IMG/VR virus record: IMGVR_UViG_2595698871_000001
Location: 109,443 to 173,442 of that record
From: a virus
Lineage: Duplodnaviria; Heunggongvirae; Uroviricota; Caudoviricetes
Direction: 5' to 3' (one strand)
Length of the DNA stretch: 64,000 nt
Under the pieces are notes generated by a model. The model had not been told where the DNA came from. It made no database searches and saw only the letters and a list, made by a program, of their open reading frames with translations. Of the stretch, positions 3,568 through 56,868 are shown piece by piece. Each line of letters starts with the position of its first letter. Position 1 is the first letter of the stretch. Made by a program: the position numbers and the translations under genes.

Positions 3568-5691
3568 CTAGTAGCTGCCGAACTTCAGGGTGAGAGGGAT
3601 GGTGCGAATCAGCGCTTCCAGGGCCTTGGTGCAGGCGGTGACCTGCTCGGTCGAGGTCGCGTGGTTCGTGTTGTCGAGGAACTTGCGGATCGGGTGGTTG
3701 GACGTGGCGTTCAGCTTGGTATGACCCTCCTCGAACGTCTTGGTCAGTTCCGAGCGCGGCGGCGCCTTGAACTGCCCGTCCACCTCGTAGAGCGCCTTGA
3801 TGAAGGAGCGCTCGCGCTCGGTCCACTCGACGAGGCCGGCGGCCAGCAGCGGCTTGACCGCGCCGAAGTAGGCCGCGACCGACGACTTCATCCGCGTCAG
3901 GCGGTCGAAATCGGCCGGGCACTTCTCGATCGCCCGGTTGTAGAAGCCGTAGGCCGTCGACGAGGTCGACAGCTTCTGCACCGCCACCACGCAGTCATCC
4001 AGGCTGACCTTGTGCTTGGCCTGGATCGCCGCGTCGATCGCCTCGCGCATGGTCGGGACCTTGGCGTCCTCGACGTGCTTCTGGGCGGTGGGCGAGGCGA
4101 TGTAGATGTGCTTGATGCCGTACTTGTTGGCGACGACGAAGACGTCCTCGGCCTTCTTGCGGTACTGGTCCGACGACACCCAGGCCACGGTCCCGGCAGG
4201 GAAGGTCTCCACGCCGGTCACCGCCATCTGCTCGCCCGCGCGCTTGGCCAGGGCCAGACCCCGGATCGGCGGCACATAGGCGGGCGCGTCCTTGCTGACC
4301 TTGTCGCGGCGCGGGACCTCGCCCTTGAGCGTGGCCACGTCGATGTCCTCGAACTTGGCGGTCGGCAGGGCGCAGTTCCAGAAGGCCTTGTCCCGGTCGT
4401 AGCCGAGCATGAAGACCCCGTCCTTCAGGTTCTTGCTCTCCAGGTAGAGGCGCAGGATGCGCGCAAGGCGGCGCGTCTCGCTCTGGGAGAACTCGCGCTT
4501 GGTCGAGTCGTCGCGCGACGGGTCGAGCAGGTCGGAGATGTCGCGCAGGACCAGGAAGTGGGTTTCGGCCTTCTGGCTCAGGTCGAGCGTGTTCTCGATC
4601 CGGTAGCCCCAGCGCTCGCGGTGCTGGTCGAACGAGGCCTTGTAGAGGCAGGCCACGCCAGGGAAGGAGATCGTCGTGCTTTCCAGGCCCGTGGCCGGGT
4701 GCTTGGGCTTGCTGCTGATGAACGGCGGGCGCAGCTTGTTGTGGGTCGCGAAGAACTCGGTGACCGACTGGATGTCCTTGATCTTGACCCAGATCGCCGC
4801 CTCGACGTCTTGGCTGATCGTGCCGATGATGTCTTGCAGGGCCTTGACCGCTTCGGGCTTGTACTGGATTTCTTCCCGCGACGGGATGGGCTCGACCGTG
4901 CCCATCGGCACCGTGATCAGCCACTTGCGGCCGTTGTCGTGGGGCAGGCTCAGACCGCCCTTGGCGGCCAGCGGGTAGATGGCGCAGCCCTGGCGCACGT
5001 TCCACGTCGCCGGCAGGGCCGAGTTCTCGTAGGCGGCCCAGGTGCCGTCGGCGGCTTCGTACTGCGGCATGCCCAGCGGCTGGCCCAGGTCGATGTTGCT
5101 GTCGTACATGGGGATGAAGCCCATGGCGACGTTCTTGACGGCGCGCTCGAAGGAGGCGAAGTCGGTGGGGTTGACCGCGACGGTGACGCGCACGCCGGCC
5201 GGCTCGGAGCAGTCCTCGGTGCCCTGGAGCATGACGCGCGGCACGCCGCCCTTGCCGATCGCGGCGGTGTAGTGGCGCACGACGTCGCCGTCGTAGCAGG
5301 ACAGGGCGAATTGGGAGGTGTAGGCGAACGGGCTCTTGGAGCCCAGGCCGAAGGCGCCGGTGAGATCGTCGGTCTCGTCCTTGTCCGACTCGAACAGGGT
5401 CGAGTAGAGGTGCATGACCTTGGCGTGGTCCATGCCGGGGCCGTAGTCGCGCACGTAGAATTCGGGGCGCATTTCGCTGGGGACGTGGACGAAGAAGCTG
5501 CCGGGGTAGCCGGCGACGATATGGGCGTCCTGGGCGTTCGAGCAGATTTCCCGCACCAGCGAGCCGATCTTGTCCGAGTAGAGCCCGTCGATCAGCATCC
5601 GGAACGCTTTGCCAGACGCCTTGATCTTGAACTCTTGCTCCTCCTGAACGCCGATGGTTTCGAGGAAGACCGGTTCGGTTGCAAGCCGCAT
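3568..5691 (-). CDS. rIIA: rIIA-like protein (N-terminal GHKL/HATPase_c ATPase fold)
   Basis: GHKL boxes LVREICSNAQDA (N box), VRDYGPGMD (G1) and GAFGLGSKS (G2); about 700 aa; directly upstream of rIIB; start taken at ATG 5691 (tggag RBS); the ORF-track start at 5697 is a TTG. Confidence 0.8.
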   Translation of the reverse strand: MRLATEPVFLETIGVQEEQEFKIKASGKAFRMLIDGLYSDKIGSLVREICSNAQDAHIVAGYPGSFFVHVPSEMRPEFYVRDYGPGMDHAKVMHLYSTLFESDKDETDDLTGAFGLGSKSPFAYTSQFALSCYDGDVVRHYTAAIGKGGVPRVMLQGTEDCSEPAGVRVTVAVNPTDFASFERAVKNVAMGFIPMYDSNIDLGQPLGMPQYEAADGTWAAYENSALPATWNVRQGCAIYPLAAKGGLSLPHDNGRKWLITVPMGTVEPIPSREEIQYKPEAVKALQDIIGTISQDVEAAIWVKIKDIQSVTEFFATHNKLRPPFISSKPKHPATGLESTTISFPGVACLYKASFDQHRERWGYRIENTLDLSQKAETHFLVLRDISDLLDPSRDDSTKREFSQSETRRLARILRLYLESKNLKDGVFMLGYDRDKAFWNCALPTAKFEDIDVATLKGEVPRRDKVSKDAPAYVPPIRGLALAKRAGEQMAVTGVETFPAGTVAWVSSDQYRKKAEDVFVVANKYGIKHIYIASPTAQKHVEDAKVPTMREAIDAAIQAKHKVSLDDCVVAVQKLSTSSTAYGFYNRAIEKCPADFDRLTRMKSSVAAYFGAVKPLLAAGLVEWTERERSFIKALYEVDGQFKAPPRSELTKTFEEGHTKLNATSNHPIRKFLDNTNHATSTEQVTACTKALEALIRTIPLTLKFGSY

Positions 5692-5699
5692 TATCAACT

Positions 5700-5775
5700 C
5701 CAGAGGAGAGTGGTTAGGTGGATGTCGACGATCCTTCTATCCAGGGCATCCGGTTCTGTCAACACACTCGCTCCG
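5700..5775 (-). promoter_or_regulatory. consensus promoter/leader element driving rIIA-rIIB
   Basis: Reverse complement reads gagcgaGTGTGTTGACAGaaccggatgccctggaTAGAAGGatcgtcgac...ggag..ATG; TTGACA, 17 nt, TAGAAG. Confidence 0.55.
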
Positions 5776-6793: not shown

Positions 6794-6866
6794 GTTGGCG
6801 TGAGACTGTTGACATCTCTGATTTTGTGACATAGAAGCCTCCTCGACGACAACGAAGGAGGCTTTC
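6794..6866 (+). promoter_or_regulatory. full-consensus promoter/leader element (GTTGGCGTGAGACTGTTGACAT-N17-TAGAAG-CTCGACGACAACGAAGGAGG)
   Basis: TTGACA at 6809-6814, TAGAAG at 6832-6837, CGACGACAACG at 6844-6854, GGAGG RBS, ATG at 6867. Confidence 0.6.
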
Positions 6867-13896: not shown

Positions 13897-14358
13897 ATGA
13901 CGACCCTGATCGAACAACTCCGCAACGACGCCCTGGCCGCGCGCAAGGCCGCCATCAAGAAGGAAGCCGGCGGTGAGCACGCCGCGCTCCTGGCCTCGGT
14001 GGCGTCCGACGCCACCATGATCGGCAAGAACGACCGCGCCGCGCCCGGCCGCGAACCGACCGACGACGAGACCGCCAAGGTCGTGAAGAAGTACATCGCC
14101 GGCCTGGAGACCTCGATCGAGGCCGCCCGGAGCGAGGAGGAGCGCTCGCGCTTCATCGTCGAGAAGCGGCGCCTGGAGGGCTTCCTGCCGCAGATGCTCG
14201 ACGGCGGTCACCTGACCGACGCCATCCACGTGACCCTGGCCAAGCTGGGCGTCGATCGCGACGTCAAGAGCACCAAGGCGGTGGTCGCCGATCTGCAAGA
14301 GACCTACCCCGGTCAGATTGACCCGGCGGCCGTCTCGCGCTACCTTCGCAACGTCTGA
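13897..14358 (+). CDS. GatB/YqeY-domain protein
   Basis: Collinear with B. subtilis YqeY from memory: L.EQL..D...A.K..........D.E...V.KKY..........EE...F.VE..RLEGFLPQML....L. Confidence 0.65.
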   Translation: MTTLIEQLRNDALAARKAAIKKEAGGEHAALLASVASDATMIGKNDRAAPGREPTDDETAKVVKKYIAGLETSIEAARSEEERSRFIVEKRRLEGFLPQMLDGGHLTDAIHVTLAKLGVDRDVKSTKAVVADLQETYPGQIDPAAVSRYLRNV

Positions 14359-18179: not shown

Positions 18180-18812
18180 CTAGGCGCCCCTAAGAGGCTC
18201 GAAAGGCTGCTCGCTGGGGATGTAGAGGGGGTGGCGAGGATGCCCGCCTTTGGACTTGCCGAGGCACTTGACTTCGACCCCGGTGATTTCGGCTTGCTGG
18301 ACCGCGCCATAGTCTTGATCCTTGAACTCCCCATGGACACCCCAGCCGGCGATGACGTCGGCCTTGGCGGTGACAGCGTACTCGAAAGCGTGTTGCAGGA
18401 AACGGGCGTTGAGTGGCCCGATCGGGTCGGGCGCGGCCTTCATGATCGCGGGCGACTTTGACCGGAAGGCGAAGAGGTTGACCACGATGATCCCGCCGTA
18501 GTCGTCGCGGCGCGCAAAGCCCATGCAGCGCCGGATGGTGTTGTCGTCGACTTGCGCGGTGGCGGTAGACGGATTGAGCATCATGAAGATCAGCAGCGGC
18601 TTGCTCGGGTCCCAGACCCGCATCAGCATGTAGCGGAAGGTCTCGCAGTCCGAGAGGATCGCGGCCTTGATCACGCCGTCCTCGATCACCACGTCGCCAT
18701 AGACGCCGGTGATCTCCGGATCGTCGATCGACAGTTCGGCGGTCCCGTCCTCCAGGACCCGCAGGAAGTCGCCCCAGGAGGGCGCGCTCAGTTGTGCGGT
18801 GATCGTCGTCAT
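18180..18812 (-). CDS. DUF1643-family protein
   Basis: LLIFMMLNPSTATAQVDDNTIRRCMGFA...GGIIVVNLFAFRSKSP...VIAGWGVHG matches remembered DUF1643 blocks (LNPS...DDpT.rrc...NLfa.R...aWG); start could be M10 (18821) or M13 (18812). Confidence 0.55.
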   Translation of the reverse strand: MTTITAQLSAPSWGDFLRVLEDGTAELSIDDPEITGVYGDVVIEDGVIKAAILSDCETFRYMLMRVWDPSKPLLIFMMLNPSTATAQVDDNTIRRCMGFARRDDYGGIIVVNLFAFRSKSPAIMKAAPDPIGPLNARFLQHAFEYAVTAKADVIAGWGVHGEFKDQDYGAVQQAEITGVEVKCLGKSKGGHPRHPLYIPSEQPFEPLRGA

Positions 18813-18859
18813 TCCTGACATTTGCCCCGAGACGGCCGGCTTTGTCAACGCTTGGAATC

Positions 18860-21164: not shown

Positions 21165-21622
21165 TGGCAGACCTTCACGGGGTCGACGGCCGCGACCGGC
21201 GACATGTAGGTGTCGGGGTCCCAGGCGCCGGGGACGTTGCCGCCCTCGATGTACTGGTAGTCCGGCGACGGCGGCCTCATCGAGCCGCCGTTGCTGGCGA
21301 CCTTGCCCGGATTGGGATAGGCCGATAGCCACAGGCGCCCGTCGGTGCCGCGCAGGACAAATTGCCCGCTCTGGCGGCAGACCTTGGCGATCTGCATCCG
21401 CCATGCGTAGTTGAGCTTGCGCTTCTTGGCGGCCTCGTCGCGCAGCCACTGCTCATGGCCCATCCGCGCCCACCGAGCCCTCTTGGCGACGAGGGCCTTG
21501 TGCTCGGGCGACCAGCGCAGGTTCTGCTCCTCGTCGAACGACACCGACACCGTCACCAGCAAGAGGAGGACCAGGACACCAAGCACCGGGAGCCAGAAGA
21601 GCGGATCACGCAGGCGAGACAT
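21161..21622 (-). CDS. membrane-anchored hypothetical protein (N-terminal TM helix)
   Basis: LFWLPVLGVLVLLLLVTVSV hydrophobic segment; ATGA overlap with nadV. Confidence 0.5.
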   Translation of the reverse strand: MSRLRDPLFWLPVLGVLVLLLLVTVSVSFDEEQNLRWSPEHKALVAKRARWARMGHEQWLRDEAAKKRKLNYAWRMQIAKVCRQSGQFVLRGTDGRLWLSAYPNPGKVASNGGSMRPPSPDYQYIEGGNVPGAWDPDTYMSPVAAVDPVKVCQ

Positions 21623-23079
21623 CAGGCGGGCTCGTCGACGAAGGCGTAGTCGCCGGTGTCGTAGCCGGCCGCCACGCGCTCGCGGACTTGATCCAGGGTC
21701 GTCGGCTCCAGCACCTTGCCGGTGTTGAAGACCTCGTCGAGCAGGTCGTGCTCAACCACGTCGCCTTCGTGGACCGTGATGGTCTCGAAGCCGCCATGCT
21801 CGTTGGTCACGAGCGCCAGCTTGCCCTTCTTGGACACCTTGCCCGGATCGGTGATCGGGTCCTTGAAGATGTCGACCCACTCGCCGTTGATCTCCTGGGC
21901 CGACGACTTCATCGCCCACTTGTTGGTGTCGCGGTCGAGGTCGCCCGTCGCCAGACCACCGCCGGCCGCCGTCATGATGCTGTCGGGCGCGATGCCCAGG
22001 TCCCGGCCCAGGTAGAACGGGTCCATGTGGGTGTGCTCGTTCATGCCGTCGCCCTGGAGGACCTTGACGTTCATGTTGATGACGTCCAGGCCCTTGCTGT
22101 TGCGCTGGGTGCCGAACCCGTCCGCCAGGGTCTTGAGGACCGGCGGGATCACCTCGCCCAGGCGCCCGCTGTCGGGGCGGCAGACGATGGTCAGGTTCTT
22201 GTTGGCGATCAGGTCCTTGTACTTCACGAGCTTCTTGGCGAACTCGAAGATGTTCCAGGTGTCGCCGACCAGCGAGACGATCGAGCCCACCGGCGCGCGC
22301 GTCAGGCAGTGCAGGATGTACTCGTCGTCGTTGTCGCGCCCGAACGAGCACGAGATCGAGTGCTCGGTGGCCAGCACCGAATAGGCCGACATCTCGCTGA
22401 AGTAGTTGATGTTCGCCGCGCGCACGCCGGGCACGTTGTCCGAGCCCTGGAAGTGGAAGAGGTGAGCGATGCCGGCCAGGACCGAATGGTCATAGCCCAT
22501 GGTGCCGCGCGAGGAGAAGTCCAGGAAGGCGAACGGCGACATCGGGGTGTCGCTGGTCAGTTCCCAGAAAATCTTGATCGACTGGGCGATCTTGTTGACG
22601 CGGGCGGCGATCGTCGAGGCCGTCCAGACATCGCGCAGGATCATGGTCTCGAAGTACGAGGTCAGCCAGGGCAGGCGCGGGTCGAGGTTCTCGACGCTGA
22701 TCAGCGCGTTCTTGACCGGGATCATCATGCCCTCGGGCACGGCCTTGATCCGCAGCGGCAGGTAGCCGCCGTACTCGTTCAGGATGATCTCCCAGCCGTC
22801 ACGGTTGAACGGCAGGCCATGGGCCGGCACGAACGCGGCCATCTCTTCGATGTCGGCGCGGGTGATCGGCTTGCAGAGCTTCTGGAAGAGCAGGCGCTGG
22901 AACGCGGCCAGCATCACCTTGGGGTAACGCCCGCCCCGGCTCTCGATGTAGCTGTAGACGGTGGTGCAGCCGTCGCGATAGAGCACCCAGTGACCCAGCT
23001 TGTAGCTGTCGGTGTCGGCGATCAGGTTGTAGGTCTCGACGGGGGCGACCCCGTCCCAGTTGGCGATGTCGAAGGCCAT
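21622..23079 (-). CDS. nadV: nicotinamide phosphoribosyltransferase (NadV/NAMPT)
   Basis: N-terminal YNLIADTDSYKLGHW (DSYK signature); about 485 aa, typical for NAMPT; aagggga RBS. Confidence 0.85.
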   Translation of the reverse strand: MAFDIANWDGVAPVETYNLIADTDSYKLGHWVLYRDGCTTVYSYIESRGGRYPKVMLAAFQRLLFQKLCKPITRADIEEMAAFVPAHGLPFNRDGWEIILNEYGGYLPLRIKAVPEGMMIPVKNALISVENLDPRLPWLTSYFETMILRDVWTASTIAARVNKIAQSIKIFWELTSDTPMSPFAFLDFSSRGTMGYDHSVLAGIAHLFHFQGSDNVPGVRAANINYFSEMSAYSVLATEHSISCSFGRDNDDEYILHCLTRAPVGSIVSLVGDTWNIFEFAKKLVKYKDLIANKNLTIVCRPDSGRLGEVIPPVLKTLADGFGTQRNSKGLDVINMNVKVLQGDGMNEHTHMDPFYLGRDLGIAPDSIMTAAGGGLATGDLDRDTNKWAMKSSAQEINGEWVDIFKDPITDPGKVSKKGKLALVTNEHGGFETITVHEGDVVEHDLLDEVFNTGKVLEPTTLDQVRERVAAGYDTGDYAFVDEPA

Positions 23080-23090
23080 GAGGTTCCCCT

Positions 23091-24329
23091 TTAAGCGTTG
23101 AGGCTAAGCATGCGGTCCACGATGAAGGCGTGGTCCTCGAAGGTGTTGGACGGGTCGATCTCGGAGATCGGGTCCCAGTCGGCGGCGGCGGCGTCGTCGT
23201 GCCCCTTGACCACCGGCAGGCTCAGGCCCAGAGCCGGCGGCGGGATGACGAAGTGGTAGGCGGTCGAGATGATGTGGGCGCGCCGCGAGCGGTGCGGATC
23301 GTCGAAGACCTGAGGCTCGCCCACCAGGAAGCGGCGAAGCTCCTCCATGGCCTTGAGCACGTAGCCCGGCGCGGCCGGCGGACGCAGGCCCAGCTTCTCG
23401 GCCTGCTTGCAGGCGGCGAGCCAGTGGACGAAGTTGTAGTAGTCGCGCTCGGAGATGAACAGCGCGGTCTCTTCGATGATCTCGCGCAGGCAGTTGGCCA
23501 GCAGCGAGGAGCCCGCGTTGACGAAGCCGCCGGGCAGGGCCTTCATGCCCAGGCCCTCGGCGCCGCCGCGCTCGATCCGCAGGATGTGGCCGGCGCACTC
23601 GACGACGCCGTCGACGGCCAGGAACGGACCCGGCCCCCAGCGCTCGCGGTAGGCGTCCTCGGCCTTCTTCTGGGCGAGCAGGTAGGCGTAGACCTGCTTG
23701 TCGCGGAACCGCTCCAGGAAGTCGATGGTGCTCGGGTAGAGCAGATCGCTCCAGGCGTAGCCCCGGTCGCTCCAGGAAGTGTCGCGGAAGTTGACCCCGC
23801 CAGCGAAATAGGCTTGGCGCAGGGCCGTGGCGTTGACGCCGTTGTCCTCGACCGGCGTGTAGGGCCACTGCGGGAACCACGTCAGGTATTCGCTGGTGGC
23901 GTCGCGGACGTTGCCGATCAGGGTGACGCGCGGGCGCAGGACCTTGGTGGCGTTCTTGACGTGCTGCTGGACCTGGGCGATCCACTCGTTCTTGCCGAAC
24001 GGGCCGGTGTCGTTGAGCGCGATGACCTCGGTGTTGGAGATGTGCTCCAGGACGCGGGCGCCGGTGACCTCGACATCGACGTACTCGCCGCTGAAGTCGG
24101 CCGCGATCTCCTCGGCGGCCAGATCACTGATCCCGTCCAGGATCATCGCCTTGCGCTCCTCGAACAGGAACGGGTTGCGGGTGTCGCGGGCGAGGTTGGC
24201 CGAGCCGATGAACCAGAGGACCTTGCGGGCCTTCTTGCGCGCGGCCTGATACAGGCGGAAGTGGCCGAGCTTGGTCGGCATTTGCGCCCGCGTGATCAGC
24301 ACCGCGATGTCGTACTCGAAATCCACCAT
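23091..24329 (-). CDS. natV: bifunctional NMN adenylyltransferase / Nudix hydrolase (NatV-like)
   Basis: N-terminal nucleotidyltransferase motif DIAVLITRAQMPTKLGH ((H/T)xGH-like); C-terminal Nudix box GGFVNAGSSLLANCLREIIEETAL (Gx5Ex7REUxEExGU); ATG 24329 overlaps the upstream TGA. Confidence 0.8.
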   Translation of the reverse strand: MVDFEYDIAVLITRAQMPTKLGHFRLYQAARKKARKVLWFIGSANLARDTRNPFLFEERKAMILDGISDLAAEEIAADFSGEYVDVEVTGARVLEHISNTEVIALNDTGPFGKNEWIAQVQQHVKNATKVLRPRVTLIGNVRDATSEYLTWFPQWPYTPVEDNGVNATALRQAYFAGGVNFRDTSWSDRGYAWSDLLYPSTIDFLERFRDKQVYAYLLAQKKAEDAYRERWGPGPFLAVDGVVECAGHILRIERGGAEGLGMKALPGGFVNAGSSLLANCLREIIEETALFISERDYYNFVHWLAACKQAEKLGLRPPAAPGYVLKAMEELRRFLVGEPQVFDDPHRSRRAHIISTAYHFVIPPPALGLSLPVVKGHDDAAAADWDPISEIDPSNTFEDHAFIVDRMLSLNA

Positions 24330-24754
24330 CACCTCCTAAAGGCCGGGCGGATGCGCCGGGCCGGCTTGTTCTCGGTCAATTCCCGCCCGCTGAAGGACGG
24401 GAAGGAAAGCTCGCTGATGCCGTTCTGCCGTATGGCGAACTGGCGCTTCTTGGTGTCGATCCCGTCCAGGTGCGTGCTGCGCCGCCGCTCGATCAGTTCG
24501 AGGTCGACGACGTCGCCAAACACCTTGCCGTGGAAAATCTGCCGCCGCGCCCAGGTGATGGCCGATCCCAGGTGCTCGAACGCCCTGGTCTTCTCGGCCT
24601 CCTGGAGGCTGGCGCCGTCGTGGAAGGACGGGTCCACCCACGACAGCTTGATTTCCCGCGCCGGGAGCGTCTTCACCAGGACGTTGATGGCCTCGTGCCC
24701 GTAGCGCTGGGCGAAGTCGCCCACGTCGTAGCTTTCGATGTCCAGCACCATCAT
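24329..24754 (-). CDS. hypothetical protein (about 141 aa)
   Basis: Start taken at ATG 24754 because the upstream GTG lies inside the promoter -10; ATGA overlap with natV. Confidence 0.45.
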   Translation of the reverse strand: MMVLDIESYDVGDFAQRYGHEAINVLVKTLPAREIKLSWVDPSFHDGASLQEAEKTRAFEHLGSAITWARRQIFHGKVFGDVVDLELIERRRSTHLDGIDTKKRQFAIRQNGISELSFPSFSGRELTENKPARRIRPAFRR

Positions 24755-24779
24755 GGTGATCGGCTTGGTCGTTAGGGAC

Positions 24780-24815
24780 GACACTATCGATTTCCCTCCG
24801 GCTTTGTCAACGCTT
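24780..24815 (-). promoter_or_regulatory. promoter-like element (gcgTTGACAaagccggagggaaatcgATAGTG)
   Basis: TTGACA (reverse complement of 24806-24811) and a -10-like ATAGTG 17 nt downstream; lies between the PTH2 stop and the next gene. Confidence 0.4.
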
Positions 24816-25291
24816 TAACGCAGGAGCTTCAGCGACGAGGGGGCGTGGTATTTGAACGCCGCCTCGGTGATCGGCCCGATCCCCACGAAGGTCACGGTCG
24901 GCTTCTCGAAGACGGTGCGCCCGGCGTCGACGACCAGGGTCGCGCCGGCATACTCCCGGAAGCGCTCGTAGAGGGCTTCCAGTTCTTCGTTGGTGCCGGT
25001 GTGGAGCGCGATCTTCGCCGCCGACTGCGAGTAGCGGTACTGGCGCGCGGTCTTGGGGAAGCGCTCCATGGCGTCCCACCACGCATGCAGGTAGGCGTGG
25101 CCAGCCTGGGCGGAGAGCTTGCCGATGTTGAGGGACTTGTCCTCGGGCTTGCGGCTGCGCTTGGCCACGGTCATCGCGTCGAGCGCTTCCTGGCTGACGA
25201 TGGCGTAGAGGCGCAGTTCAGCCTTGGACTTGCCGGCGAAGCACGCCATCACGAGGTCCCAGGCGTGCAACCAGCTTTCGAAGAATTTCAT
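24815..25291 (-). CDS. peptidyl-tRNA hydrolase, PTH2 (archaeal/eukaryotic) type
   Basis: GKLSAQAGHA (cf. GKVAAQCSHA of human PTRH2) and LVVDAGRTVFEKPTVTFVGIGP (cf. [21 protein letters not shown]); C-terminal SLKLL. Confidence 0.7.
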   Translation of the reverse strand: MKFFESWLHAWDLVMACFAGKSKAELRLYAIVSQEALDAMTVAKRSRKPEDKSLNIGKLSAQAGHAYLHAWWDAMERFPKTARQYRYSQSAAKIALHTGTNEELEALYERFREYAGATLVVDAGRTVFEKPTVTFVGIGPITEAAFKYHAPSSLKLLR

Positions 25292-25731
25292 GCCCGCAAG
25301 GCCCTTTCGTAGTGGTCCTCCAGCGCGATGGCCGCGTCGAAGGCGATGTCGATGAGGTCCTCGTTGATGATGACCTCGCAGGATCGGTGGAGGCTGATCA
25401 ACGCCAGGGGCTCGTAGGCCTTGTTGAGCGTCGACAGCGTCTTGATGTTCAGGGCCAGTCGATCGAGCAGCTTGACGCCGTAGACCTCAGGTCCGAACGG
25501 GTGCTTCTGCGCGTAGAGCCGCTTCTTGACCTTCGGAAAGGTCTCCCAGTCCTTGACGTGCAGGTCGGACATCAGGTCGGCGGTCTGCTCGATCAGGGTC
25601 ACATAGCGCATCAGCTTGCGGAGCCGGACCTGGATGTCGTCGGACTTGGCCGTCGGCGGAGGATCGCGACAATCCTCCGCCTCATGGGCCGCCAGCATCC
25701 GCGCTCGAAAGAGGACGTCGGCGATCGGCAC
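25288..25731 (-). CDS. hypothetical protein (147 aa)
   Basis: GTG start; ATGA overlap with PTH2. Confidence 0.5.
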   Translation of the reverse strand: MPIADVLFRARMLAAHEAEDCRDPPPTAKSDDIQVRLRKLMRYVTLIEQTADLMSDLHVKDWETFPKVKKRLYAQKHPFGPEVYGVKLLDRLALNIKTLSTLNKAYEPLALISLHRSCEVIINEDLIDIAFDAAIALEDHYERALRA

Positions 25732-25734
25732 CGA

Positions 25735-26172
25735 TTAGGCCTCGGGCGTCGGGGCTTCGGCTTCCGGCTCGGCGGCGGCGGTGGTCTTGGCCTTGCCTTT
25801 GCTGCCCGACGACGGCGAGGCCTGCGCTTCGTCAGCCGCCGGCGCGGCGGCCGGGGTCTCGACCAGAACCGGCTCGGCGTCGGCCGGCACGTCGACCGCA
25901 GCGTAGTCGGCCTCGAACGCGGCCGGCTTCAGGATCAGCAGTTCGTAGTCGTCGCCGCGCGGGATGCGCACGATGAAGTCGTCCTGGGTCGCCGAGGCGA
26001 TCTGGCCGTTGATCGGGACCAGCAGCTTGCCGACGGCATCCTTGCCGACAGCCATGGTGCCCATGGCGGTGTAGGCGGTGTGCTGCGTCAGCCACTCGGG
26101 CAGGTCTTCCAGGCGCTGGAAGGTGTATTGGACCGCATCCACGGTCACGGGCAGACGAGTGTACTTGCTCAA
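25735..26172 (-). CDS. hypothetical protein (145 aa; A/P/E-rich C-terminus)
   Basis: TTG start 8 nt after an aggag RBS. Confidence 0.5.
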   Translation of the reverse strand: MSKYTRLPVTVDAVQYTFQRLEDLPEWLTQHTAYTAMGTMAVGKDAVGKLLVPINGQIASATQDDFIVRIPRGDDYELLILKPAAFEADYAAVDVPADAEPVLVETPAAAPAADEAQASPSSGSKGKAKTTAAAEPEAEAPTPEA

Positions 26173-26181
26173 GGATAGCTC

Positions 26182-26766
26182 CTACTGGGGCTGGGCCGGC
26201 GCCGGGATGGCGAAGGCAAGGGAGTCTTCGACCAGGGCCAAGAGGTCGGTGACCAGCTTGGGATTGAGGTCGTCTTGGGTCAGGGCGGCGGCGACGGCGT
26301 TGATCCGCGACCACGTGAAGTCCTCGGTCAGGCCGAGATTGTGGAGGCGCAGCAGGGTCTCGCCGTGGATCGCCACGACGCCGGAAAGCTCGCGCAGGGT
26401 GCGCAGGGTCAGAGGCCGCTCGGAGAGCATCTTGATCGCGCTGCCCGAGGGCGCCAGGAGCAGGCGCATCCAGTCGCCGGCGGGATCGTCGGCCCGGCGC
26501 AGGTCCGGATGGTCCAGGGTCGCGCCCCAGATCACCGCGTGGGCTTTCGCTGCCAGCGACTGGCGGCGCTTGGCGATGGCCTCGGCTTCCTTGGCTTCGC
26601 GCTGGGCCGCCAGGAAGGTGGCGATGATCACCGAGGGGAAGATCGCCACCAGGAAGAAGGCGAGGCGGTCGGTCCAGACCGCGTGCGGCGTGACCACGTT
26701 CATGCCCGTGCCGATCAGCACCGTCGGGTAGATCAGCCCGCCGTGGCGGTGGATGAAGCGGATCAT
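26182..26766 (-). CDS. membrane protein (2 TM), hypothetical
   Basis: Hydrophobic segments LIYPTVLIGTGMNVV and LAFFLVAIFPSVIIATFLAA; ggagg RBS. Confidence 0.5.
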   Translation of the reverse strand: MIRFIHRHGGLIYPTVLIGTGMNVVTPHAVWTDRLAFFLVAIFPSVIIATFLAAQREAKEAEAIAKRRQSLAAKAHAVIWGATLDHPDLRRADDPAGDWMRLLLAPSGSAIKMLSERPLTLRTLRELSGVVAIHGETLLRLHNLGLTEDFTWSRINAVAAALTQDDLNPKLVTDLLALVEDSLAFAIPAPAQPQ

Positions 26767-26769
26767 GAA

Positions 26770-26840
26770 AAGGGCCTCCGGCGTTGTCGTCGAAGGCCCT
26801 TCTAGCGAGTCGGTGTCAGGCTGTCAACACTTGTCAGCCA
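26770..26840 (-). promoter_or_regulatory. consensus promoter/leader element
   Basis: Reverse complement reads GTGTTGACAGcc..(17)..CTAGAAGGGCcttCGACGACAACGccGGAGGcc..ATG. Confidence 0.55.
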
Positions 26841-27442
26841 GCGTCTTCCACCAGCCGCGCGATCCGCTCGAAGCCCAGTTCCAGGCGGCCCCAGAAGGCA
26901 CCGGGCACGTGCGGCTTGACGACCTCGGTGAAGCGGGCGCGCTCCTTCAGGTACATCTTGGCCATGCCCAGATGCGGTGCGTTCGTCGCCGGGTCCTTGA
27001 TCGAGGCCTCGACGTTGGCGATCCGATCGGCCAGCTTCAGGATGCAGGCCTCGGGGTGCTCGCCCAGCTTGCGGTAGATGTCCTCGTTGCGGGCCTTGCG
27101 GTTGGGGCCGATGCCCGACACCGCCCAGACCAGCGCCGCGACGCGCTCGCCGAACTTGTCCTCAACCATCTGCCGGCGGGCCTCGGGCGTCATGTCGAGG
27201 TGGGTGTCCTCGATCACGTCGTGCAGTTTGGCCGCCGCCGTCCAGGTGAAGCCCGCATAGCCGTAGTCGTCCAGGATGCGCTCGACCTTCTGGAGGTGGT
27301 AGAGGTAGGGCTGGCCGGCGTACTGCTGCTCGCCGTGCGCGGCGATGGCGAACTTCGTCGGGTCCTCCTGCTGGTAGGTGCCGGGGGCGTCCTCCATCAG
27401 GCTGGCCAGTTGATCGGGATCGGACAGGGGCGTGTCGGTCAT
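26834..27442 (-). CDS. small alarmone hydrolase (SpoT/RelA-type HD domain, Mesh1-like (p)ppGpp hydrolase)
   Basis: FAIAAHGEQQYAGQPYLYHLQKV...AAKLHDVIEDT...ILKLADRIANV matches the HD hydrolase signature (H...HD....D, KLADRLHNM) of RelA/SpoT and SAH enzymes. Confidence 0.75.
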   Translation of the reverse strand: MTDTPLSDPDQLASLMEDAPGTYQQEDPTKFAIAAHGEQQYAGQPYLYHLQKVERILDDYGYAGFTWTAAAKLHDVIEDTHLDMTPEARRQMVEDKFGERVAALVWAVSGIGPNRKARNEDIYRKLGEHPEACILKLADRIANVEASIKDPATNAPHLGMAKMYLKERARFTEVVKPHVPGAFWGRLELGFERIARLVEDAG

Positions 27443-29936: not shown

Positions 29937-31169
29937 CTAGCCCTTCACGCAGAGGACTTGCTTCAGGGTGTGGACGATGTCCACGAGGTCCTTCTGCGCC
30001 TCCATGACCGCGTCGATGTCCTTGTAGGCCATCGGGATTTCGTCGATCACGCCGATGTCCTTGCGGCACTCGACGCCTTCGGTCGCCTTGATCTGGTCTT
30101 CCAGCGTGAAGGCGGCCTTGGCGGCGGTGCGCGACATGGTCCGCCCCGCGCCGTGCGAGCACGAGCAGAACGAGTCGGCGTTGCCCTTGCCGCGCACGAT
30201 GTAGGACTTGGCCCCCATCGAGCCGGGGATGATGCCGAACTGGTCCTTCTGAGCCGACACCGCGCCCTTGCGGGTCACGAAGACCCACTCGTCGAAGTGG
30301 AACTCCTTCTGGACGTAGTTGTGGTGGCAGTTCACCGCTTCCTTGTCCGTCTTGAAGGGCGGCAGGCCCGAGGCGCGCATGGCGTCCAGGACCCGGATCA
30401 TCATCATCTCGCGGTTGATCCGCGCGAAGTCCTGACCCCAGGCGACGGCTTCCACGTAGTCGTAGAATTCCGGCTCGCCTTCCGACAGCCACGCGAGGTC
30501 CTTGTCGAGCGGCTTCTGACCGTCCCGACGCAGCATCATCTCCTTGGCCTTCTCGATGAAGATACGGCCGATGGTGTTGCCGACGCCGCGCGAGCCCGAG
30601 TGGAGCATCACCCAGACGCGCTGGTCCTCGTCGAGGCAGACCTCGATGAAGTGGTTGCCGCCGCCCAGCGTGCCCAGTTGGACGACGCTGTTGGCGTTCT
30701 TGAGGGTCTTGTACTTGTCGCAGAGCTTCTCGAACCGGGCTTCCAGGCCCGAGTCGACCCACTTGCGCATGATCGAGTTCGGGATGCCGCTACGCCCGTT
30801 CCAGCCGCCCGACGGACCCGGCCCGCCGTGCGGGACGGCGTGCTCGATCAGCGAGCGCAGCTTGGCGAGGCTGTCGGGCAGGTCCGAGGCCTTCAGCGAG
30901 GTGCGCACGGCCATCATGCCGCAGCCGATGTCCACGCCCACGGCCGCCGGGATGATGGCGCCCTTGGTCGGGATCACCGAGCCCACGGTCGAGCCGATGC
31001 CCATGTGGACGTCCGGCATCAGGGCCACATGCGAGTGGATGAACGGCAGGGCGGCGAGGTTGTGCGCCTGCACCTGGGCGGGCTGCTCGAAGGTCACACC
31101 CCGGACCCAGGCCTTGATCACCCCGCCGTTCCAGCCGGTGATCTCTTCGTATTGGGTCTCGGCGGTCAT
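29937..31169 (-). CDS. rtcB: RtcB RNA 3'-phosphate/2',3'-cyclic-phosphate – 5'-OH ligase
   Basis: Hallmark blocks GGGNHFIE, HSGSRGVGN, CHHNY, SCSHGAGR; 410 aa; gaggag RBS. Confidence 0.9.
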   Translation of the reverse strand: MTAETQYEEITGWNGGVIKAWVRGVTFEQPAQVQAHNLAALPFIHSHVALMPDVHMGIGSTVGSVIPTKGAIIPAAVGVDIGCGMMAVRTSLKASDLPDSLAKLRSLIEHAVPHGGPGPSGGWNGRSGIPNSIMRKWVDSGLEARFEKLCDKYKTLKNANSVVQLGTLGGGNHFIEVCLDEDQRVWVMLHSGSRGVGNTIGRIFIEKAKEMMLRRDGQKPLDKDLAWLSEGEPEFYDYVEAVAWGQDFARINREMMMIRVLDAMRASGLPPFKTDKEAVNCHHNYVQKEFHFDEWVFVTRKGAVSAQKDQFGIIPGSMGAKSYIVRGKGNADSFCSCSHGAGRTMSRTAAKAAFTLEDQIKATEGVECRKDIGVIDEIPMAYKDIDAVMEAQKDLVDIVHTLKQVLCVKG

Positions 31170-38990: not shown

Positions 38991-40386
38991 CGACCGAGGC
39001 TGCGACCTTGGTGAGGGACTCGCGCTGGGCCTTGATGCGTTTGTCGAAGGCGTCGAGCGTCGACATCATCTCGGCCTCCAGCTTGTCCAGCGCCGCCCAC
39101 TGCTCGACGACCGCCTTGGCGGCCTTGTCCTGGGCCTCGTTGCGTTCTGGGCCGTAGACCCGCTCGCGCAGTTCGGCGATCCAGGCGCGCGGCAGGCCCA
39201 GTTCCTTGGAGACCTTCTCGTCGGTCATGTCGCCGCCATAGCACTGGCGGTTGGTATCGTAGTGGGTGTCCAGGGCTTCGAGGATACGGCGGTTCTCGGC
39301 CGGCGTCGCCGCGCGCGGCGGCTCGGCGGACTGGGGCAGGGTCTTGGCGGCGGCTGGGGGCATGGCGATCTCCGGAATAGGGGTTTCGATATGGGTTTCG
39401 ATGGTGGTCGGATTGTTCTTCTTGGCCAGCCGCGTCTTGGCGGCGGCCTTCTGGCGCTCGGAGCGTTCTTCCTGGGTCATGGCGGCCCAGTAGGCGCGCG
39501 GGCCGCGCCCCTTCTTTTCACGCTGCTCGGCGATCTTGGCTTCCCGCTTGGCCTTGCGCGTGGCGTGGCCCTTCTTGGCGAGTTCCGACCGTTGCTCGGG
39601 CGTCAGGGATTCGTGGTGGGCGCGCAGATGCGCCCCATCGAAGAGCTTGCGCCGATCGACCTTGGCGTCGACGCCTTGTTCCTTGCTCACGATGGCGTAG
39701 GCCTCCTCGAAAATGGGATTGAGGAACTTGTCGGACGCGTAGTGGACGATCTCCTCGGGCAGCACGTCATCCTGGGTGCTCAGTTCCTGGATCACCCGGC
39801 GGATCGACGCCAGGAGAGGAGCCGTGGGCGCTTCAAGTCCACACTCGCGGAAGAACTTGCCGGCGTAATTCGTGAGGACGACCTTGATCCGCTGCTCGCG
39901 CGGGTAGCCGCCCGTCGTCTTGCGGATGGCGCCCCGGACGATCCTGTCGGCCGTGTCGGGATCGATCTCCGCCACGGTGGCCAGCATCTTGCCCACGGCC
40001 TCGTCTTCGAGGACGAAGTCACCCGCCTCGCGCGGGTCGATCATCTCGATCGGCTTGATCGCGTTGGACACGACCTGGATCGCCGTGTCGATGGCGATGT
40101 CGTCGCGGTCGGCGACCGGGGCGGAGTCCTGCTTGGCGCGGCCGTGGCAGGACGGGCAGGTGTCCTTGTTGCGGTTGGCGCCGACGGCCCAGCCCCGCTT
40201 ACGGAATATCTTCGAGGCCAGTTCCGCCGGGATGTGCGGGCTGCGCGTCGTCACCGGGACGGCGTCATCGCGGTCGCACTTGCGGCAGACGGCCACGACG
40301 TGGTTCTGGCGCTTGTTGGGGTCGGTGGCCAGGGGACGCATCTCGACCCGGAACGACTCGCGCGTGGCAAGTTTGGTCGTGCTCAT
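38974..40386 (-). CDS. hypothetical protein with an N-terminal Cys4 treble-clef (CRKC...CPSCHG) and a long K/R/E-rich region; possible nucleic-acid-binding regulator
   Basis: C-x2-C-x34-C-x2-C; central ARKAKREAKIAEQREKKGRGPRAYWAAMTQEERSERQKAAAKTRLAKK; start at M15. Confidence 0.5.
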   Translation of the reverse strand: MSTTKLATRESFRVEMRPLATDPNKRQNHVVAVCRKCDRDDAVPVTTRSPHIPAELASKIFRKRGWAVGANRNKDTCPSCHGRAKQDSAPVADRDDIAIDTAIQVVSNAIKPIEMIDPREAGDFVLEDEAVGKMLATVAEIDPDTADRIVRGAIRKTTGGYPREQRIKVVLTNYAGKFFRECGLEAPTAPLLASIRRVIQELSTQDDVLPEEIVHYASDKFLNPIFEEAYAIVSKEQGVDAKVDRRKLFDGAHLRAHHESLTPEQRSELAKKGHATRKAKREAKIAEQREKKGRGPRAYWAAMTQEERSERQKAAAKTRLAKKNNPTTIETHIETPIPEIAMPPAAAKTLPQSAEPPRAATPAENRRILEALDTHYDTNRQCYGGDMTDEKVSKELGLPRAWIAELRERVYGPERNEAQDKAAKAVVEQWAALDKLEAEMMSTLDAFDKRIKAQRESLTKVAASVGVKLA

Positions 40387-56731: not shown

Positions 56732-56868
56732 GACGCTCCTCGATTTTCGCCGGCACCCTAGAGGAGCGCCGATGTGTTGACAAGCGCCAAATGGCTCTGG
56801 CTGGCGAGTGTTGACAAGGCGGCGGTGGTCCCTTAGAAGGGCGGCGACGACAACGAAAGGAGGCGCTG
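56732..56868. promoter_or_regulatory. divergent promoter hub: minus-facing element plus two tandem plus-facing GTGTTGACAAG boxes, then CTTAGAAGG, CGACGACAACG and AAGGAGG
   Basis: Plus strand: TTGACA at 56776-56781 and 56811-56816, TAGAAG at 56834-56839, CGACGACAACG at 56845-56855, ATG at 56869; minus side: cctctaggg-like -10 at 56756-56764 and a gaggag RBS. Confidence 0.5.

Follow-up and report, generated by a model that had tools for sequence, protein, structure and literature searches.

A divergent PTH2-family protein, predicted to act as a peptidyl-tRNA hydrolase, encoded by Caulobacter phage CcrRogue

Peptidyl-tRNA hydrolases (Pth) act on released peptidyl-tRNA and not on peptidyl-tRNA that is ribosome-bound. 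The archaeal Pth2 enzymes reportedly hydrolyse diacetyl-Lys-tRNA and complement an E. coli pth(ts) strain, and residues K18, D86 and T90 of the S. solfataricus enzyme are said to be required for catalysis. The human member of the family, PTRH2/Bit1, has an N-terminal extension that serves as a mitochondrial targeting and anchor segment, and it has a second, non-enzymatic role. Phages with an archaeo-eukaryotic PTH2 in place of the bacterial Pth1 have been described for RaK2 (2013), for the cluster C mycobacteriophages (2018) and for jumbo phages generally (Iyer et al. 2021), and PTH2-fold proteins are named peptidyl-tRNA hydrolase in RaK2, Myrna, Atu_ph07, VH7D, Klosneuvirus, Pithovirus and fowlpox virus; no activity data for any phage Pth2 were found in the literature searched. 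We describe here the PTH2 gene of Caulobacter phage CcrRogue, gp162. The identification of its product as a PTH2 protein is correct and already known, and it is ordinary because gp162 has been annotated since 2012 and phage PTH2 genes are already in print. The new elements are minor ones, namely a corrected start codon, nearest cellular relatives that are alphaproteobacterial rather than archaeal, and a defined family of phage promoters.

The window analysed is a 64,000-nucleotide stretch of phage DNA, within which positions 23000-27000 are 100% identical to CcrRogue (JX100814 / NC_019408); subtracting 109442 from a position in the CcrRogue record gives the window position. A preliminary description had placed a PTH2-type gene here, and both its coordinates and the two motif strings it quoted are exact: translation of the open reading frame yields a 158-residue product with GKLSAQAGHA at residues 57-66 and VVDAGRTVFEKPTVTFVGIGP at residues 120-140 (Table 1). 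The 2012 deposit (JX100814) names gp162 "putative peptidyl-tRNA hydrolase" and the phiCbK record JX163858 names the orthologue "peptidyl-tRNA hydrolase PTH2 family protein"; the gene is left undiscussed in the main text of the CcrRogue genome paper (PMC3556154). As judged from sequence comparisons, gp162 is a real gene rather than a chance open reading frame, because homologues are present in 40 phage records and 84 database clusters and the gene is under purifying selection, with pairwise dN/dS values of 0.09-0.38 against four relatives. The same values make it extremely improbable that gp162 is a decaying or functionless passenger; no aligned relative has a broken frame or a lost start codon, phages of Caulobacter and Brevundimonas that are only distantly related still carry the gene, and these conservation data effectively refute a loss of function.

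Table 1. Positions, in window coordinates, of gp162, its predicted functional elements and its neighbours.
Feature	Position	Strand	Description
PTH2-type peptidyl-tRNA hydrolase gene (CcrRogue gp162; activity predicted)	24815..25291	-	158 codons + stop; ATG at 25291, TAA ending at 24815
Codons 2-19, N-terminal helix added to PTH2 core	25235..25288	-	AF2 helix, pLDDT 93-96
Codons 40-54, insert (TVAKRSRKPEDKSL) between strand 1 and GK motif	25130..25174	-	AF2, alignment gap
Codon K58, equivalent to K18 of S. solfataricus Pth2	25118..25120	-	invariant in 33 sequences; 1xty alignment
Codons D122-A-G-R-T126, equivalent to D86-A-G-K-T90 of S. solfataricus Pth2	24914..24928	-	D122 and T126 invariant; 1xty alignment
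gp165, gp164, gp163	25288..26766	-	gp165 26182-26766; gp164 25735-26172; gp163 25288-25731; tight array upstream of PTH2
Canonical phage promoter (predicted) upstream of gp165	26783..26828	-	GTTGACA, 17 nt, TAGAAG, 6 nt, CGACGACAAC box, GGAGG, ATG at 26766
Degenerate promoter-like site after PTH2 stop	24781..24811	-	in 30-nt gap; GTTGACA, 18 nt, TAGTGT; consensus scan 10/12
Downstream genes	21622..24784	-	gp161 24329-24784; NadM-type NMN adenylyltransferase/Nudix 23091-24332; NAMPT 21622-23079
gp166, HD_4 / RelA-SpoT hydrolase-domain-only protein, small-alarmone-hydrolase-like	26834..27442	-	PF13328, 35.6 bits
gp175, RtcB RNA ligase	29937..31169	-	PF01139, 412 bits; 4.6 kb upstream of PTH2

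The deposited coding sequence begins at M15 (window 25249) and specifies 144 aa in both JX100814 and NC_019408, and the deposited gene model of phiCbK gp165 also begins at its 15th codon. A start at M1, an ATG 42 nt further upstream (window 25249-25291, minus strand) and the one adopted in the preliminary description, is nonetheless better supported by the alignment of five phages (CcrRogue, CcrBL10, BL57, phiCbK and one metagenomic relative). The M1 codon and its ATGA overlap with the gp163 stop codon are unchanged in all five, codon 15 is variable (BL57 has Leu there, the metagenomic phage Ala), and the N-terminal helix specified by the upstream codons is kept at the protein level in relatives with only ~55% identity; it is for these reasons that we prefer M1. 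The preference is based on start-codon conservation and not on the dN/dS of codons 1-14, which is 0.32-0.65 over few sites.

The preliminary description had suggested a search with the Pfam PTH2 profile (PF01981), and gp162 matches it with 54.1 bits, well over the gathering score of 23 (E 2e-14, profile positions 12-106 of 115). This is the sole Pfam match at E up to 1, and there is no match to the Pth1 profile. Among the PHROGs, residues 15-156 align with positions 1-142 of the 143 in phrog_11824 ("hydrolase"; E 2.4e-90), and phrog_1866, a second PTH2-like family, is matched more weakly. When a profile built from 33 relatives was compared with the PDB, it matched seven distinct sequences, all of them Pth2/Bit1 (E 3e-20 to 1.5e-12). 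The AF2 model obtained from the 33-sequence alignment has a mean pLDDT of 92.9, and its core of four strands and four helices corresponds to the published description of the Pth2 fold. All 14 top Foldseek matches of this model in the PDB are Pth2-family structures, the first 13 with a probability of 1.00. When normalised to the target, the TM-score is 0.75-0.85 for the 13 crystal-structure chains, and the NMR model 1rzw gives 0.47. The assignment to the PTH2 type that had been made from the sequence is thus borne out by profile matches to both Pfam and the PDB, by the model and by Foldseek.

Fifteen positions are invariant across the 33 sequences (G57, K58, Q62, G64, H65, A66, Y85, K93, D122, T126, T132, T134, G137, G139 and P140), and in a pairwise alignment with the 1xty sequence K58, D122 and T126 fall on the S. 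solfataricus residues K18, D86 and T90. We conclude from the alignments and the model that gp162 is a PTH2-family protein with a predicted Pth2 fold and conserved active-site positions. The archaeal enzymes of M. jannaschii (MJ0051, 2zv3), S. solfataricus (1xty) and P. horikoshii (1wn2) have in common with it the Pfam family, the four-strand, four-helix fold (TM-scores to the target of 0.80-0.85) and the GK...AQxxHA and DAGxT...GIGP motifs. They differ from gp162 in several respects: identity of the phage protein to archaeal and human Pth2 is only 21-25%, its score is below the equivalog level, its core is extended by an N-terminal helix and an insert of 12-15 residues, and it is encoded by a phage whose bacterial host has Pth1.

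The equivalog scores are well short of what is required for archaeal Pth2 in NCBIfam (49.1 against a cut-off of 126 bits for NF003314 and 46.4 against 82 bits for TIGR00283), and by NCBI's standard these profile scores make gp162 a member of a divergent PTH2 subfamily and not an equivalog of archaeal Pth2. The same function is therefore not guaranteed, and we considered whether gp162 is a PTH2-fold protein that acts on another substrate, such as a different tRNA ester, or that binds in a non-catalytic, regulatory manner through its helix and insert. Besides the sub-threshold scores, the subfamily has invariant features of its own (HAWWDA and Y85) and the phage proteins have clade-specific additions, and the second role of PTRH2/Bit1 offers a precedent within the family. 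We nonetheless find this reading very unlikely, since all of the motif positions common to characterised Pth2 enzymes are retained and the additions lie outside the conserved core. The added helix is seen in the phiCbK-like clade only and is missing from the other aligned relatives, and the first 14 codons of the gene are left out of the deposited model. The insert is poorly modelled (mean pLDDT of 67 for the block 41-50) and corresponds to a gap in all relatives that are not phiCbK-like. Human PTRH2/Bit1 (1q7s; profile E 4e-14) resembles gp162 in family and fold and in having an N-terminal extension on the core, but in gp162 the extension is a short helix in contrast to the targeting and anchor segment of the human protein.

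All 40 phage records in which tblastn finds the subfamily are of phages infecting Caulobacter, Brevundimonas or Sinorhizobium, and every phiCbK-like phage retains the gene, as do Bertelyvirus and the Brevundimonas jumbo phages. With an E-value limit of 1e-3 an exhaustive profile search recovered 3946 cluster representatives; a limit of 1e-10 left 709 and one of 1e-30 only 53, which indicates a small subfamily inside a large family. None of the longer PTH2 relatives examined for fusions has an informative additional domain. The other viral PTH2 proteins (RaK2 ORF188, Myrna and cluster C, Atu_ph07, the jumbo phages of Iyer et al. 2021, and Klosneuvirus) have the fold and annotation in common with gp162 but belong to separate subfamilies (phrog_1866 as against phrog_11824), with 13-24% identity in structural alignment.

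The nearest cellular relatives are not archaeal: they are encoded on the chromosomes of Asticcacaulis and further Alphaproteobacteria and have 44-48% identity to the phage protein. Because these relatives lie in the host's own bacterial order, the sequence relationships indicate that "archaeal/eukaryotic-type" is the name of the family and not the origin of gp162. The alphaproteobacterial proteins (from Asticcacaulis, Hyphomonadaceae, Niveispirillum and Sphingomonadales) belong to the gp162 subfamily and have its QAGHAYLHAWWDA motif, but unlike gp162 they are cellular, occur in a housekeeping context and are without the N-terminal helix or the insert. In three Asticcacaulis species the chromosomal PTH2 gene, whose product is 48% identical to the phage protein, is found in the order recF-gyrB-PTH2-araC. 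The homologue is at about positions 4001-4423 of the loci examined, right after recF-gyrB and before an AraC/GyrI-like regulator, and in this bacterial genus a Pth2-type gene has a stable place beside core replication genes.

In the phage, gp162 follows a tight array of three genes, with intergenic gaps of 9, 3 and -4 nt along gp165-gp164-gp163-PTH2. The organisation of the sequence suggests that the promoter at 26828 is the probable start of a unit composed of these four genes. For gp161 and gp163-gp165 nothing was matched in Pfam, NCBIfam, PADLOC or PDB sequences, their PHROGs are of unknown function, and homologue searches returned near-identical phage proteins only; an AF2 model of gp163, from a two-sequence alignment, has a pLDDT of 55, which is too low to support a search by fold. 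The preliminary description had PTH2 ending an operon immediately before a promoter, and this stands only in part. To call PTH2 the last gene ahead of a promoter is reasonable, as there is a promoter-like site in the gap that follows, in which GTTGACA and TAG.TG are kept in CcrRogue, CcrBL10, BL57 and phiCbK and the spacer diverges, but it agrees with the promoter family described below at only 3 of 6 positions of the -10 and 6 of 10 of the box, and in CcrRogue it overlaps the GGAGGG Shine-Dalgarno of gp161 and, with its -10, the GTG start of that gene. Because PTH2 and gp161 have no predicted terminator between them, and because the downstream site is degenerate and overlaps the gp161 start in this manner, transcription is likely to read through from PTH2 to gp161 and the NAD genes, and PTH2 may not be the end of the operon.

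We think it probable, with some reservation, that gp162 is a catalytically competent Pth2-type esterase, a second hydrolase beside the host Pth1 that recycles tRNA; the conserved motif positions and the model point in this direction. The gene would probably be transcribed from the promoter at 26828 as the fourth of gp165-gp164-gp163-gp162, and its translation would probably be coupled to that of gp163 through the ATGA overlap. The predicted enzyme would bind the acceptor end of a peptidyl-tRNA dropped by the ribosome, or of an N-blocked aminoacyl-tRNA, and hydrolyse the ester linkage with the 3′ adenosine so as to release a reusable tRNA. In infected Caulobacter it would be a non-orthologous hydrolase alongside host Pth1, with the host tRNAs and the 23 phage tRNAs thereby kept available under heavy phage translation. 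The Pth1 gene of Caulobacter NA1000, CCNA_00517, adjoins the L25 gene; its product has the reaction and substrates that are predicted for gp162, in the same infected cell, and is unrelated to it in sequence and fold. According to one supplementary table (PMC10688885, S3 Table), the CCNA_00517 mRNA stays within a 1.3-fold change throughout a time course of phiCbK infection, and since host Pth1 is present and its mRNA little changed, the phage enzyme would act beside the host enzyme and replace no lost one. That infected Caulobacter needs extra Pth is an assumption of the tRNA-recycling reading, and we note that Pth activity matters for phage lambda (Garcia-Villegas 1991, as reported in a paper citing it). 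If phage Pth2 enzymes are active, they show that the growth of a phage can be limited by tRNA recycling from dropped-off peptidyl-tRNA, and to a degree at which large phages carry an enzyme of their own for it.

All 23 phage tRNAs are counted as genes in CcrRogue. An additional ARAGORN call, a tRNA-Ala(TGC) at 39888-39961 on the plus strand, is a probable false positive, because it lies inside the gp192 coding sequence on the opposite strand and there is no Rfam tRNA at gathering score; the CcrRogue genome paper reports no tRNA-Ala in Rogue. We also note that gp148 (13897-14358, plus strand), deposited as 'tRNA amidotransferase domain protein', has a sub-threshold YqeY-like match only (24.4 against 27 bits).

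Profile matches identify the NadM-Nudix and NAMPT genes downstream of PTH2 and the HD_4 hydrolase-only gp166 and RtcB gp175 upstream, so that the NAD-salvage genes and the nearby RtcB and SAH genes of the preliminary description are all found; an HNH endonuclease gene is also upstream. Nampt and Nmnat together constitute the NARP2 NAD-reconstitution pathway. The 202-residue gp166 matches TIGR00691 at positions 4-120 of 687 only, and from this domain content it is taken to be small-alarmone-hydrolase-like with no synthetase; the names 'GTP pyrophosphokinase' and '(p)ppGpp synthetase I' are given to it in several phage records. A metagenomic phiCbK-like contig with a 54% identical PTH2 keeps the order HNH, HD_4, PTH2, NadM, NAMPT, DUF1643 with extra genes inserted. 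The PTH2 neighbours are unrelated in CcrSC, in Brevundimonas phage Kikimora, in Sinorhizobium phage Phosso and in two metagenomic jumbo-phage contigs, and co-location of PTH2 with NAMPT and NMNAT is not conserved across these unrelated phages. Because the gene order is limited to phiCbK-like genomes, the linkage reflects inherited synteny and is not evidence of a functional module.

This limited linkage bears on the suggestion that gp162 is directed against host defences, either stripping from tRNA the N-acetyl-aminoacyl groups put there by GNAT toxins of the TacT/AtaT/ItaT type or clearing the products of translation arrest, and so disarming abortive-infection modules. Such a role is plausible in its biochemistry. 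The literature records that bacterial Pth reverses TacT acetylation of aminoacyl-tRNA and that a phage SAH takes the toxSAS modification off tRNA 3′ ends, and an SAH-like HD_4 protein and a NAMPT and NadM pair equivalent to NARP2, whose counter-defence functions are known or likely, are encoded in the same co-directional array as gp162. We regard such a role as unlikely, however, since host Pth1 already has this activity, the linkage to NAD salvage and SAH is confined to phiCbK-like phages and lost in CcrSC, Kikimora and Phosso, and the stable gyrB-adjacent chromosomal gene of the same subfamily in Asticcacaulis fits housekeeping better. Within the literature searched, GNAT toxins, anti-phage defence and Pth are not brought together in any paper, and none was found that tests a phage Pth as an anti-defence protein or proposes a counter-defence role for a phage Pth2; the PADLOC defence profiles match neither PTH2 nor five of its neighbours. 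Reversal of toxin acylation of tRNA by a phage Pth2 would be a new kind of counter-defence, although neither this role nor tRNA recycling is new as a hypothesis about phage PTH2 generally. A broader version, in which the RtcB-HD_4-Pth2-NAD-salvage array forms an island acting around the tRNA acceptor end and NAD, with Pth2 stripping N-acetyl or blocking acyl groups, SAH removing 3′ pyrophosphates and RtcB resealing cut tRNAs, is distinctly unlikely; were it true, phage Pth2 would represent a new class of anti-defence enzyme.

RtcB is encoded on the same strand as PTH2, and a response to tRNA damage has been proposed in print for jumbo-phage PTH2 (Iyer et al. 2021): after an anticodon nuclease cuts a tRNA on the ribosome, Pth2 removes the peptide and RtcB reseals the tRNA, with the ribosome freed. 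We consider this explanation of gp162 to be quite unlikely as well. RtcB lies about a dozen genes away from PTH2, the intervening stretch includes at least one canonical promoter, that at 26828, the Pth substrate is the released and not the ribosome-bound peptidyl-tRNA, and in the other phages examined PTH2 is without conserved RNA-repair neighbours.

The promoter at 26828 is a perfect copy within a family on which the main text of the CcrRogue genome paper is silent. There are 19 copies of GTTGACA in the window compared with 4.3 expected, a count reached in 0 of 100 shuffles, and GACGACAA occurs 13 times compared with 2.1 expected. About 13 sites have one architecture, in which GTTGACA is followed after 17 nt by a TAGAAG-like hexamer, then after 5-8 nt by CGACGACAAC, a Shine-Dalgarno and a start codon, the last of these 58-63 nt from the first G of GTTGACA. 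The family sites, given as the G of GTTGACA, are on the minus strand at 5763, 26828, 31232, 33760, 35260, 38969, 40773, 42305, 46859, 49010 and 53332 and on the plus strand at 6808, 56810, 58767 and 61857, with the consensus tGTTGACAg, 17 nt and a TAGAAG-like -10, and with GGAGG ahead of the start codon; many have TTGGCGTGAGAGT just upstream. The CGACGACAAC box is strongly conserved at or just past the expected transcription start, is not explained by sigma-70 rules, and may be a regulatory or 5′-UTR element. Two copies of GTTGACA on the plus strand, at 56776 and 56810, are 34 nt apart with the full canonical architecture in the second only, and this pair may represent a tandem or a vestigial promoter.

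The degenerate site after PTH2 has counterparts with a different relationship to gp161. In phiCbK and BL57 the -10-like TAGTGT or TAGATG is followed after 6-8 nt by an in-frame ATG, the fourth or fifth codon of the gp161 homologue (region corresponding to window 24754-24811, minus strand), a spacing which suggests that the mRNA of the homologue is leaderless in these two phages. In CcrRogue and CcrBL10 that ATG is lost (CTA or GTA) and there is instead a strong GGAGGG before the upstream GTG, and from these sequences the mode of gp161 expression may have changed between lineages. A variant promoter at 18812-18849 on the minus strand (GCGTTGACAAAGCCGG, with a -10 of CAAATG) has the same first 16 bases as the site after PTH2 and stops 6 nt short of the ATG that opens the DUF1643 gene (18180-18812), an arrangement which suggests that the transcript of this gene is also leaderless.
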